Positions 2,113 to 64,000 of a stretch of 64,000 nt of DNA are shown here, in pieces (the stretch's first letter is position 1; each line of letters begins with the position of its first letter). Position numbers and translations under genes: made by a program. The stretch spans positions 94,240,001-94,304,000 of the forward strand of contig OZ024744.1 of assembly GCA_964016885.1 (NCBI GenBank), in the 5' to 3' direction. The notes beneath the pieces were generated by a model. The model ran no database searches, was not told the DNA's origin, and saw only the letters and a list, made by a program, of their open reading frames with translations. Source of the DNA: Eledone cirrhosa. Lineage: Eukaryota.

Positions 2113-2219
2113 ACACACTGTAAATATGGTTGGCATTAGGAAGGGCTTCCAGCTGTAGAAACCAAGCCAGATGCCTGTCATCTGATCTGACCCATGCTAG
2201 CATGGAAAAAGGGACGTTA
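2113..2219 (+). mobile_element. Short 3' end of an RTE LINE or RTE-tailed SINE
   Basis: CACTGTAAATATGGTTGGCATTAGGAAGGGC...CCATGCTAGCATGGAAAAAGGGACGTTA; the same blocks end the RTE copies elsewhere in the window. Confidence 0.75.
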
Positions 2220-4700
2220 TATATATATATATATATATTATATATATATTATATATATATTATATATTATATATATTATATATATATATATATTATATAT
2301 ATTATTTATATATATATTATATATATTATATATATATATATTATATATATATTATATATATATTATATATATATTATATATATATTATATATATATTATA
2401 TATATATTATATATATATATTATATATATATATATATATTATATATATTATATATATATATATTATATATATAATATATATTATATATATATATATATAT
2501 TATATATATATTATATATATTATATATATATATATATATTATATATATTATATATATATATATATTATATATATATATATATTATATATATTATATATAT
2601 ATTATATATATATTATATATATATTATATATATTATATATATTATATATATATTATATATATATTATATATATTATATATATATATATATTATATATATA
2701 TATATATTATATATATTATATATATATTATATATATATATATATTATATATATTATATATATATATATATTATATATATTATATATATATATATATTATA
2801 TATATTATATATATATATATATTATATATATTATATATATATATATATTATATATATTATATATATATATATATTATATATATTATATATATATATATAT
2901 ATATATTATATATATTATATATATATATATATTATATATATTATATATATATATATATATTATATATATATATATATATTATATATATTATATATATATA
3001 TATATATTATATATATTATATATATATATATATATATTATATATATATATATATATATATTATATATATTATATTATATATATTATATATATATATATAT
3101 ATTATATATATATATATATATTATATATATTATATATATATATATATTATATATATTATATATATATATATATTATATATATTATATATATATATATATT
3201 ATATATATTATATATATATATATATATTATATATATATATATATATATATTATATATATTATATATATATATATATATATATATATATTATATATATTAT
3301 ATATATATATATATATTATATATATATATATATATTATATATATTATATATATATATATATTATATATATTATATATATATATTATATATATATATATAT
3401 TATATATATATATATATTATATATATTATATATATATATATATTATATATTTATATATATTATATATATATATATATTATATATATTATATATTATATAT
3501 ATATATATATTATATATATTATATATATATATATATTATATATATTATATATATATATATATTATATATATATATATATTATATATATATATATTATATA
3601 TATATTATATATATTATATATATTATATATTATATATATTATATATATTATATATTATATATATTATATATATATATATATATATATATATTATATATAT
3701 TATATATATTATATATTATATTATATATATTATATATTATATTATATATATTATATATATTATATATATTAAATATATTATATATATATATATATATTAT
3801 ATATATATATATATATTATATATATTATATATATATATATATTATATATATATATATATTATATATATTATATATATATATATATTATATATATTATATA
3901 TATATATATTATATATTATATATATATATATTATATATTATATATATATATATTATATATATTATATATATATATATATTATATATATTATATATATATA
4001 TATATTATATATATATATATATTATATATATATTATATATATTATATATATATATATATTATATATATTATATATATATATATATTATATATATTATATA
4101 TATTATATATATATATATATTATATATATTATATATATATATATATTATATATATATATATATTATATATATATTATATATATTATATATATATATTATA
4201 TATATATATTATATATATTATATATATATTATATATATTATATATATTATATATATATATATATTATATATATTATATATATATTATATATATTATATAT
4301 ATTATATATATATATATATTATATATATTATATATATTATATATATATATATTATATATATATATATATTATATTATATTATATATATATATTATATATA
4401 TTATATATATATTATATATATTATATATATATATATATTATATATATTATATATATATATATTATATATATATATATATTATATATATTATATATATATA
4501 TATATTATATATATTATATATATATTATATATATTATATATATATATTATATATATTATATATATATATATATTATATATATATATATATTATATATATA
4601 TATATATTATATATATTATATATATATATATATTATATATATTATATATATATATATATTATATATATTATATATATATATATATATATTATATATATTA
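2219..4700. repeat. Pure A/T microsatellite array, (TA)n interrupted by TT (unit (TA)xTTA)
   Basis: About 2.5 kb with no G or C seen. Confidence 0.97.
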
Positions 4701-5612
4701 TACAGCAGTGTTAGTCCAGGGTAGTACAATAAGCAAGGCAATCAAAGATATGAAGACGGGTAAGGCGGCTGGTCCTTCGGAAATAGTTGCTGAGATGCTG
4801 AAGGCATCTGGTTCGGTGGGACACACCATGGTCACCCGGATAGTTAACCAAGTCGTACAGAATGGGGTTGTTCCGAAGGACTGGCGTAGCAGCATCATCG
4901 TTAACTGCTATAAGGGAAAAGGAGATGCCCTAGATAGGAGTAACTATAGAGGCATTAAATTAATCGACCAGGTCATGAAGGTCACGGAAAAAGTAATAGC
5001 ACAACTAATCAGAGAGAGAATTGATCTAGATGAAATGCAGTTCGGGTTTGTGTCAGGCAAAAGTACCACAGACGCTCTTTTCATTGTACGACAACTACAA
5101 GAGAAGTACCTAGCTAAAAGTAAACCCCTATACTTAGCTTTCGTCGACTTGGAGAAAGCCTTCGACAGAGTCCCCCGTTCCATTATCTGGTGGTCTCTTA
5201 GAAAACTAGGTGTTAACGAATGGCTTGTGAGAGCTATACAAGCCATGTATAAAGAAACAGTCAGTAAGGTTAGAATTAACAACGAATATAGTGAAGAGTT
5301 TAGCGTAAAAGTTGGTGTCCATCAGGGCTCTGTTCTTAGCCCCCTACTATTTATTATTGCCCTTCAGGCTATAACAGAGGAGTTCAAGACCGGCTGCCCA
5401 TGGGAACTCCTATACGCAGATGATCTAACGCTCATAGCTGAATCAATGACCGAACTAGAGAAGAAATTCCAAACATGGAAGCACGGCCTAGAATCAAAAG
5501 GCCTTAAAATTAACCTGGCTAAGACTAAAGTTCTAGTTTGTAGGAAAGAAAATAAGGCGGCAGTCCCATCTGGGAAATGGCCATGCTCAGTGTGTAGGAA
5601 AGGCGTAGGTAG
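4701..5612 (+). mobile_element. RTE-clade LINE family A, 5'-truncated reverse transcriptase fragment running into the assembly gap
   Basis: Open frame with KAAGP, YKGKGD..DRSNYRGIKL, QFGF, FVDLEKAFDRV, GVHQGSVLSPLLF, LLYADD, GLKINLAKTK. Confidence 0.95.
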
Positions 5613-5812
5613 NNNNNNNNNNNNNNNNNNNNNNNNNNNNNNNNNNNNNNNNNNNNNNNNNNNNNNNNNNNNNNNNNNNNNNNNNNNNNNNNNNNNNNNN
5701 NNNNNNNNNNNNNNNNNNNNNNNNNNNNNNNNNNNNNNNNNNNNNNNNNNNNNNNNNNNNNNNNNNNNNNNNNNNNNNNNNNNNNNNNNNNNNNNNNNNN
5801 NNNNNNNNNNNN
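5613..5812. other. Assembly gap (200 N)
   Basis: Run of exactly 200 N; contiguity across it is not guaranteed. Confidence 0.99.
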
Positions 5813-62119: not shown

Positions 62120-62237
62120 ATTGTTATACTTGGGGAGGGTCATATTTGTGTAATATTGCCAGAATTAATAACAGAACACACTCACTGTTTGGTTGGTTTT
62201 CGCTTCTCGCTGTCTTTTATATCTGTAATCTAGCTTA
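62120..62237 (-). mobile_element. Island ending in a variant of the shared terminal motif
   Basis: Minus strand ...AACCAACCAAACAGTGAGTGTGTTC...ATGACCCTCCCCAAGTATAACAAT. Confidence 0.6.
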
Positions 62238-62393
62238 TATGTATATGTGTATATATATGTATATGTGTATATATGTGTGTATATGTGTATATATGTGTAT
62301 ATATGTGTATATATATGTATATGTGTATGTGTATATATATGTATATGTGTATATATATATATATGTATGTATGTGTGTATATATATATATGTA

Positions 62394-62947
62394 TCTCATG
62401 GTCGGTTCGTTGGCGACTAAACTGGCAACCCCACCAAGGTTTCTTGGTGAGGAGGGTGACTTTGGACATCCTGCAGGACTAAAAACAAAACCTGTCAAAG
62501 GGCAAAGGAGCTCTTAAGAGTCAATTGCCATCCAAAATCACCGGGAGAGATGACCCCTTAGCCTTTGTCAAGGCAGAATTCTAGGAGAAGGAAAACTCTG
62601 ATATAACACCTGCAACCCTGATGGTATCCAATGATGTTGTCTTGTTCTTCTTTTTGGTAAATATCATCTTGGTTAAGGGAGTGGGACTGGCTTTGTGCAG
62701 TGCCTTTGCTCACTATAAAAGCTTCACGGCACAGGCATTGCTTTATATCTGGAGATCTTTCTGCACTTGTCGTTACATGGTACCATGGGCCCAGCACTGT
62801 CAATAATTGTCACAGGTGTAGTGTTTGTACCAGAGTTTTCAAGTCGCTGGCTGGACTAAAAAGTCATATTCGTTCAGCGCATCGGTAGGGGTTCTCCTAC
62901 ATGGATATAAAGTAGTGGCCGTACTCGAAAACGAGTTGGCAGCCACC
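62394..62947 (+). mobile_element. Family D copy 4
   Basis: Near-identical to the other copies, same 3' end. Confidence 0.9.
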
Positions 62948-64000
62948 ATATATATATATATGTATGTATGTGTGTATATATATATATATATATGTATGTA
63001 TGTGTGTATATATATATATATATATATATATATATGTATGTATGTGTGTATATATATATATGTATGTATGTGTGTATATATATATATGTATGTATGTGTG
63101 TATATATATATATGTATGTATGTGTGTATATATATATATGTATGTGTGTGTGTATATATATATATGTATGTGTGTGTGTATATATATATATGTATGTGTG
63201 TGTGTATATATATATATGTGTGTGTGTATATATATATGTGTGTGTATATATATATATGTGTGTGTGTATATATATATATATATGTATGTGTGTATATATA
63301 TATATATATATGTATATGTGTATATATATATATGTGTGTATATATATATATATGTATGTATGTGTGTATATATATATATATATATATATATATGTGTATA
63401 TATATATGTGTATATATATATATGTGTGTATATATATATATATGTATGTATGTGTGTATATATATATATATATATATATATGTGTATATATATATGTGTG
63501 TATATATATATATATATATGTGTGTATATATATATATATATATATGTGTATATATATATATATGTATATGTGTGTGTATATATATATATATATATATGTG
63601 TATATATATATATATATGTGTATATATATATATATGTGTATATATATATATATGTATGTATGTGTGTATATATATATATGTGTGTATATATATGTATGTA
63701 TGTGTTTATGTATGTGTATGTGTTTATACATATATATGTATGTGTTTATATATATATACGTATGTGTGTGTATATATTTATATGTATGTATGTCTGTGTG
63801 TGTATATATGTATGTGTGTATATATATATATATGTATACACACTTACATACATATATATATATATACACACACATACATACATTATGGAATACTGTTGGC
63901 TTTTTGCTACAATGTTTTCTATACCTTTCATTTATATATATATATATATGTATGTATGTATGTGTATATATATGTATATATGTATGTGTATATATATGTA

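Follow-up and report, generated by a model that had tools for sequence, protein, structure and literature searches.

Convergence of CR1-like, RTE and Penelope-like retroelements on (TA)n arrays in the Eledone cirrhosa genome

Introduction

Waldo, Mino, Kibi, Koshi and Dong are members of clades R1, Tx1 and R4 rather than of CR1 or RTE. In the portions of the literature available to us, to which all statements on published work refer, they are described as retrotransposons lacking long terminal repeats (LTRs) that insert into existing microsatellites, with ACAY, AC, TC, TTC and TAA, not TA, as targets (PMC3812793). A comparable arrangement is found in the 64,000-nucleotide window of the Eledone cirrhosa genome analysed here (positions 94,240,001–94,304,000 of contig OZ024744.1, assembly GCA_964016885.1; a 136-Mb contig in a 3.0-Gb genome), where a degenerate (TA)n field is interrupted by islands of RTE and CR1-like long interspersed nuclear elements (LINEs), Penelope-like elements and non-autonomous elements.

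Of the Penelope-like clades Hydra and Naiad, the Hydra clade has been described with features that recur in PLE-A, a Penelope-like family of the window: the DKT motif, a CxCx5C linker, CxxC and CxH around conserved E and N, tandem and inverted copies, and insertion into (TA)n (Craig et al., 2021; PMC8557442). Unlike in that report, the target is shared here, within one genome, by two LINE lineages with an apurinic/apyrimidinic endonuclease-type domain (APE) and by their dependants. The plant SaTar arrays of Mutator-like elements are likewise linear: elements that are unrelated and not nested alternate with microsatellite (Valdes Franco et al., 2018; PMC5907723). But they consist of plant DNA transposons, whereas the present array of ~60 kb holds animal retroelements with 5' truncation. 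For RTE elements, a pairing of tail and target has been described in which, as here, a microsatellite-like 3' tail matches the first target bases; its signature is a T stretch plus the first base of the target site duplication (TSD) rather than a position within TA arrays (Nishiyama and Ohshima, 2018; PMC6007223). Tx1 and R1 are the only APE clades that the available text of the same paper lists as site-specific, and TSD length is reported to depend on the LINE (PMC4245944). Endogenous caulimovirid inserts are also (TA)n-flanked, but represent passive repair capture of DNA, whereas the insertions described here are family-selective and keep their 3' ends (PMC10377300). Non-autonomous hammerhead elements derived from Penelope have been reported (bioRxiv 10.64898/2026.07.22.740005), and a curated octopus annotation of 2026 lists active RTE, CR1 and Penelope families, the word 'target' being absent from its main text as available (PMC13282606).

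The target specificity of CR1 and RTE LINEs is generally held to be weak. Here, two CR1-like families have 93–97% and one RTE family ~80% of their copies in (TA)n, in a genome that is ~8% TA-like. A convergence of CR1-like with RTE LINEs on (TA)n was not among the reports that we found, Repbase and subscription papers lying outside our search. Insertion of Hydra and Naiad elements into (TA)n and non-nested microsatellite arrays are already known; what may be new is the near-complete use of (TA)n, within a single genome, by LINEs of both CR1-like and RTE type. The presence of these LINEs beside TA-targeting Penelope elements shows convergence on a host-specific safe haven, and young copies with open frames allow one to ask which of the two, endonuclease or RNA tail, determines the target. 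Masking of TA sequence and short-read assembly hide such insertions.

Results

Island families are flanked by (TA)n across the genome

A two-state segmentation split the window into TA-like sequence and 35 non-TA segments. Thirty-two of these lie after position 7231, and as 43919–44897 and 44915–45060 are one insert, they amount to 31 islands. All 31 are bounded by TA-derived sequence, in agreement with the initial annotation, which had reported about 30 islands flanked by TA on both sides; the island at 4705, however, borders on TA at just one of its ends. All islands examined are repeats, among which no piece of a gene, LTR element or DNA transposon was recognised. The families include RTE-1, PLE-A, the 0.6-kb non-autonomous element S610 and two families, A and B (CR1-A and CR1-B), which we take to be CR1-like by structure and motifs (candidate clades being CR1, L2, Crack, Daphne and Kiri).

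For each family 29–30 other copies were sampled, excluding the window's own copy, and the 12 bases directly after the tail were tested for TA. The samples were best matches for some families and the first 30 places on one contig for others, not random draws. The 3' end was followed by TA in 27/29 copies of CR1-A, 29/30 of CR1-B, 30/30 of PLE-A and 27/30 of the hairpin family found at 23838. For RTE-1 we quote an unselected set (24/30), because three of the ten misses in the best-match set (18/28 as scored) were tail-trimming errors and one further locus had no anchor. S610 passed in 23/29 best matches and in 20/30 unselected copies, or 25/30 if (ATGT)n is included. At 128,700 random points the same test was passed by 6.5%, and on both sides by 4.1%. 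Visible 5' junctions were TA in 18/22 (CR1-B), 23/28 (CR1-A), 35/46 (RTE-1) and 21/29 (S610) cases. That RTE, CR1-like, Penelope-like and non-autonomous families all converge on (TA)n had been proposed from the window alone and holds genome-wide: compared with expectation, as the initial annotation had suggested, TA-flanked copies range by family from 20/30 to 30/30 (29/30 for CR1-B, 30/30 for PLE-A), against 6.5% of random points. CR1-A and CR1-B have most of their copies in one target repeat; for RTE-1 there is a strong preference only.

The commonest short interspersed nuclear element (SINE), 200 bp long and with 76 matches in 390 kb, served as control. It had TA on both sides in 2/76 matches (2/44 at ≥90% identity) and on the 3' side in 9 of 47 scorable ones, and no copy lies in the TA field, against 8–12 expected. 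Its copies (L144:150–346 and 75 other matches) show clear target duplications starting with ATTAT-like bases.

Exact 3' patterns occur 35,509 times in the genome for PLE-A, 22,251 for S610, 13,222 for RTE-1, 2,934 for CR1-B and 423 for the 23838 hairpin family. The window holds ten exact matches, a count inflated by the choice of families present in it, where 13.4 would be expected from its TA bases and 1.5 from its total length. The field is thus a large target without being a preferred one, and the landing pad of the initial annotation is not special per base. Convergence is genome-wide rather than local, and the field exerts no special pull.

Junctions and strand preferences of the inserted copies

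The variant motif of the TA sequence was alike on both flanks of one copy (median cosine 0.83, n = 81, versus 0.13 across copies), which identifies the 3' TA as target and not tail. A 3' TA encoded by the element as its tail is ruled out by the 5' TA together with these matching motifs, except in part for S610. Of 94 copies, 33 had abutting direct repeats that include a variant base, compared with 9% of cross pairs; the repeats measured 16 bp in 7/11 cases for RTE-1 and 7–15 bp for S610. At the 5' end, 21/70 truncated copies had microhomology of at least 2 nt, where ~15% would be expected (P = 0.001). The small overlap with the array noted earlier was confirmed, being strictly 0–2 nt in 11/13 window copies; at the remaining two junctions (39865 and 57324) the script over-extended, and by eye the overlap is ~1 and up to 5 nt, respectively. 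Each TA-using family has a 3' end that finishes in AT, TA or TAT and so overlaps the array. Fixed 3' ends with varying 5' cuts, likewise described before, apply to the multi-copy families, but some islands (41786–41942, 43919–45060, 59024–59666 and 61456–61511) are without a true 3' end.

Open APE frames are present in RTE-1, CR1-A and CR1-B, and those of RTE-1 and CR1-B keep the expected N, E, Y, D, N, D and H residues. The initial annotation had assumed families with different endonucleases or none; an endonuclease is in fact encoded by all autonomous families checked. In the open frames listed for loci L372–L394, RTE-1 has SQH in place of SDH as its last APE motif.

The flanks of S610 were G-type on the sense strand (17/21 G-only and none C-only; in a second set of 30, 18 G-only and one C-only), a preference that accounts for all four window copies lying on the + strand. 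CR1-like flanks had no such bias.

No element in the window is interrupted by another, as the initial annotation had observed; sequence-blind insertion gives this outcome in 0.4% of simulations. Neither CR1-A nor CR1-B window copies have rare variants in common, which indicates independent insertions. The four S610 copies share one variant site. Local duplication as a source of the islands was rejected on these grounds, rare variants in common being absent from either CR1-like pair and confined to one site in S610 and up to three in RTE-1.

Discussion

Origin of the islands

On the basis of sequence comparisons, we consider it probable that the islands are independent copies which entered an already expanding TA array by endonuclease-dependent target-primed reverse transcription, each family nicking TA itself. 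RTE and CR1-like LINEs would nick TA with their own APE and Penelope-like elements with a GIY-YIG endonuclease. The nicked TA end would then pair with the two to three bases, AT or TA, at the end of the RNA tail; synthesis would stop early, and the 5' end would be attached at the second nick through slight microhomology; a duplication of 10–17 bp would remain, masked by the array. This machinery would also be borrowed by non-autonomous elements. Slippage or unequal exchange may have expanded the array from a single polarised seed, with insertions collecting in proportion to its TA content.

A number of observations weigh against such a history. TSDs are ambiguous within periodic arrays, and the genome-wide samples are small and non-random, with a few loci that are neighbours or duplicates. 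The strict 5' TA test was passed by only 13/30 unselected S610 copies. Not all RTE copies lie in TA, and older ones do so less often (TA flanks in 6/19 older RTE-type ends from random DNA), and PLE-A is under-represented in the window (1 match versus 6.4 expected). The inserts at 41786–41942 and 43919–45060 are without a true 3' end, as internal or endonuclease-free priming would give. Finally, three RTE-1 window copies have rare variants (up to three) in common, which may reflect a subfamily or local copying.

A common target could also arise from shared nicks, made in the arrays by an abundant Hydra-type Penelope GIY-YIG endonuclease or by a host nuclease acting on TA hairpins, at which the reverse transcriptases (RTs) of LINEs with tails ending in AT or TA would prime in trans. 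PLE-A indeed has more exact 3' ends (35,509) than any LINE counted, insertion of Hydra elements into (TA)n has been reported (PMC8557442), every TA-using family has AT or TA at its end, and the chimera at 43919–45060 joins a PLE-A fragment to another family. Yet the LINEs have retained open endonuclease frames, the 16-bp mode of RTE-1 repeats differs from the 7–15 bp of S610, and the control SINE, with a tail that is likewise A/T-rich, does not use TA arrays. We regard shared nicks as unlikely, and hold the same of the corollary that CR1-like and RTE LINEs tuned their RNA tails to a single nick source, PLE-A or a host nuclease, so that targeting was borrowed across clades. Slightly more doubtful is endonuclease-independent capture, in which long (TA)n extrudes cruciforms and breaks, and nearby cDNA or ribonucleoprotein is patched in during repair. 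The initial annotation had left the choice between TA targeting and such capture undecided; the data favour shared targeting. For plant pararetrovirus DNA with (TA)n on its flanks, break capture has been put forward (PMC10377300); a few of the islands represent internal fragments, skips or chimeras, and the excess of 5' microhomology (21/70 versus ~15%) would fit. However, the commonest SINE is missing from the field (0 versus 8–12 expected), all islands examined are repeats without any recognised part of a gene, LTR element or DNA transposon, exact 3' ends persist in most copies, insertions also occur in short arrays and the giant field is not enriched per base, and G-interrupted arrays are imperfect palindromes. 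The selective cargo and the family-specific signatures argue against capture at breaks, as do the intact endonuclease frames, the TSD-like repeats and the differences between families in strength and strand. Apart from a few exceptions, loss of the 3' end and TSD and unselective cargo, by which endonuclease-independent insertion is recognised, are not seen.

Growth after insertion, in which very short TA sites were hit first, long flanks grew later and the insertions themselves built the field, is improbable as a general account, although some growth of this kind is likely. Maize TAFTA elements offer a precedent, with 6–8 bp sites grown to (TA)50 (PMC5907723); an amplified duplication would also give shared flank motifs, and S610 often has an (ATGT)n tail. 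Against this, the same G polarity runs beside + and - elements over ~57 kb, one 10.1-kb spacer holds no island, and 261/322 TA blocks in random DNA touch none of the window families, which together suggest that the array came first. An assembly chimera, with TA-flanked elements of many loci stitched together via their TA ends, appears very improbable. A 200-N gap does lie at the left end, and public runs match parts of 59000–60130 as repeat contigs only, none spanning an island–array junction or the unique 6330–7235. But variant motifs match across an island better than between distant spacers (cosine 0.90 versus 0.69, n = 25, P = 4e-4), polarity is uniform here whereas arrays elsewhere take either direction, and the genome-wide result is independent of this locus. 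Random insertion followed by better survival in harmless TA arrays, a passive accumulation suggested for Drosophila Waldo elements (PMC3812793), has hardly any probability in our view, as TA flanking reaches 93–100% in copies 95–99% identical, and equally young control SINE copies have TA on both sides in 2/44. Insertion by each family's own endonuclease into a pre-existing array accordingly stays our preferred, if provisional, account.

The TA field

The field had been described as continuous from 2219. This is not the case: the block at 2219–4704 and the RTE copy at 4705–5612 are split off by a 200-N gap, and 5813–7231 is ordinary sequence. Within 7232–64000, TA-like sequence makes up 71% and pure (TA)5+ only 39%, and the + strand carries 3772 G versus 498 C. 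The field extends beyond the window to ~67.4 kb, fading by ~72 kb, and a third CR1-B copy (65306–66889) lies in this part. In the 50 kb preceding the window, TA-like content is 0–5% per 10 kb (five 10-kb stretches). In 39 random 10-kb stretches TA-like DNA accounts for 7.9% (bootstrap 5.3–10.7%) and the longest TA block is 1,145 bp, so that the field is extreme in size. A subtelomeric position is ruled out by its location at 94 Mb of the 136-Mb contig.

One-sided polarity is common, reaching at least 85% in 57 of 81 other arrays of at least 600 bp. Spacers in the field are G-type next to elements of both orientations. Across 7232–64000 the local motif changes, yet G-type variants keep to the + strand over ~57 kb; other arrays are one-sided in either direction. 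In the block beside the gap (2219–4704) variation is limited to TT on one strand (141 TT versus 2 AA in 2001–4000), and this block may be a very young array or a sequencing artefact. A 2.7-kb TA array (L333:4954–7800), near a full-length CR1-B copy, has two domains of opposite polarity.

Element families of the window

Features are listed in Table 1. RTE-1 has an APE frame that continues into the RT frame and a short tandem (GAT)n 3' tail, and it may also have a separate open reading frame 1 (ORF1). Its clade label is our assumption from the motifs RLRWYGHV and RGRPRKTW and the PHD finger after the RT. In both CR1-like families a short 3' untranslated region (UTR) ends in an 8–10 bp tandem repeat. 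The CR1-like locus L333 encodes a 407-aa ORF1 and a 1045-aa ORF2 with Pfam endonuclease (EN) and RT matches, and a weak match to L1 endonuclease structures; an atlas comparison of these families gave only generic EN–RT clusters.

For S610, ARAGORN finds no tRNA-like head in the window, though it also misses degenerate heads, and no autonomous partner was seen among 59 loci. The C2H2 remnant presumably marks S610 as a deletion derivative of an RTE element. S610 also forms same-strand tandem runs with (ATGT)n between copies (loci L004, L010, L341, L354–L355 and L362–L365); L004 and L010 have the same 3' flank on different contigs, as 3' transduction would give.

The PLE-A ORF reads HSDKTGN, with DKT in place of DKG, and by inspection locus L112 has the CxCx5C linker CNCPDRSIC, VIY...YIG, CNLC and CKH. 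The GIY-YIG-type frame is open, and the domain has no Pfam match. By the defining motifs of the earlier report (PMC8557442), the predicted protein places PLE-A in the Hydra clade. The family has a 3,544-bp tandem unit, and repeat ends in long loci pass into TA in 17/30 cases and into the next unit in the other 13. Full 3.54-kb units in head-to-tail arrays occur at L270–L271 and L273–L274; both listed ORFs of L271 have the identical stop codon, and L274 shows a 55-bp tandem amplification of an ORF piece.

The chimera at 43919–45060, exposed when the Penelope search matched the ORF only, joins a PLE-A piece without spacer to a non-autonomous family with a hammerhead-like core. A template switch there would suggest that PLE-A protein copies this family. 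An Rfam search of 43900–45100 returned chance TA matches only, and none of five folded 3' ends reached a significant z-score.

Table 1. Coordinates of the TA tracts, the gap and the inserted elements in the window.
Position	Strand	Feature	Remarks
2219–4704	.	Pure A/T block: (TA)n with TT interruptions, hardly any G/C	gap separates it from main field
4705–5612	+	RTE-1 LINE, 5'-truncated within RT, right end lost in gap	RVT_1 E=3e-33; 93% to 21038–21173
5613–5812	.	Assembly gap, 200 N	then ordinary non-TA sequence up to 7231
7232–64000	+	Main degenerate TA field	71% TA-like; G-type variants on + strand; runs on to ~67,400
8578–8665	+	Penelope-like non-autonomous family, short inverted-arm-plus-tail copy	also 60590–60634
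8933–9076	-	Penelope-like terminal-repeat fragment	hammerhead-like core (by inspection)
19189–19255	-	3' end of RTE-tailed SINE	(ATG)n tail
21038–22326	+	RTE-1, 5'-truncated	PHD finger, 3' UTR, (GAT)n tail
23838–24117	+	Penelope-like hairpin	inverted 5' arm + tail
24179–24844	-	RTE-1, 5'-truncated	
25107–25820	-	RTE-2 (second RTE family), 5'-truncated	
26584–26904	-	RTE-1 copy, internal skip of ~1.9 kb	two colinear matches to locus L334
27185–27465	+	Older RTE-type 3' end	
27606–27866	+	SINE, 5'-truncated, RTE-type tail	longer copies have tRNA-like head (by inspection)
30408–31024	+	S610, full-length 0.6-kb non-autonomous element	C2H2-finger remnant
33915–34278	.	Unclassified repeat	copies in 2 other loci
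36628–36993, 38777–39341, 62395–62949	+	S610, truncated copies	
39865–41615	+	CR1-like family A, 5'-truncated	
41786–41942	+	RTE-1 5'-region fragment without 3' end, ending at internal (GATG)n	92–96% to loci L372, L377, L389
43919–44792	+	PLE-A (Hydra-clade Penelope-like) internal RT fragment, without GIY-YIG domain	99.5% to full units
44793–45060	+	Second family fused to PLE-A fragment	hammerhead-like CTGAAGA...GAAA core; Rfam no call
47404–50214	-	CR1-like family A, open 912-aa APE–RT frame, (TAAAAGAG)n tail	Exo_endo_phos_2 E=2e-11, RVT_1 E=6e-30
50857–50996	+	PLE-A terminal repeat	inverted arm + fixed 3' end
53511–53726	-	RTE-1, 5'-truncated	
53768–54185	-	RTE-2, 5'-truncated	
54834–55225	-	CR1-like family B, 5'-truncated, (TTCAAAGTTA)n tail	
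55649–57324	-	CR1-like family B, open 529-aa RT frame	RVT_1 E=6.5e-32
59024–59666	+	Repeat stopping at fixed point ~65 bp short of family 3' end, Penelope-like by structure	also 61456–61511
59812–60116	+	Penelope-like hairpin insert	
60989–61219	+	Penelope-like hairpin insert	
62122–62234	.	Arm of Penelope-like non-autonomous family	
63884–63933	.	Short unclassified repeat	1 other copy, TA-flanked

Upstream of the TA sequence, positions 875–1368 hold a 93-bp tandem repeat of about five degenerate units, with weak similarity to RTE C-terminal coding sequence.

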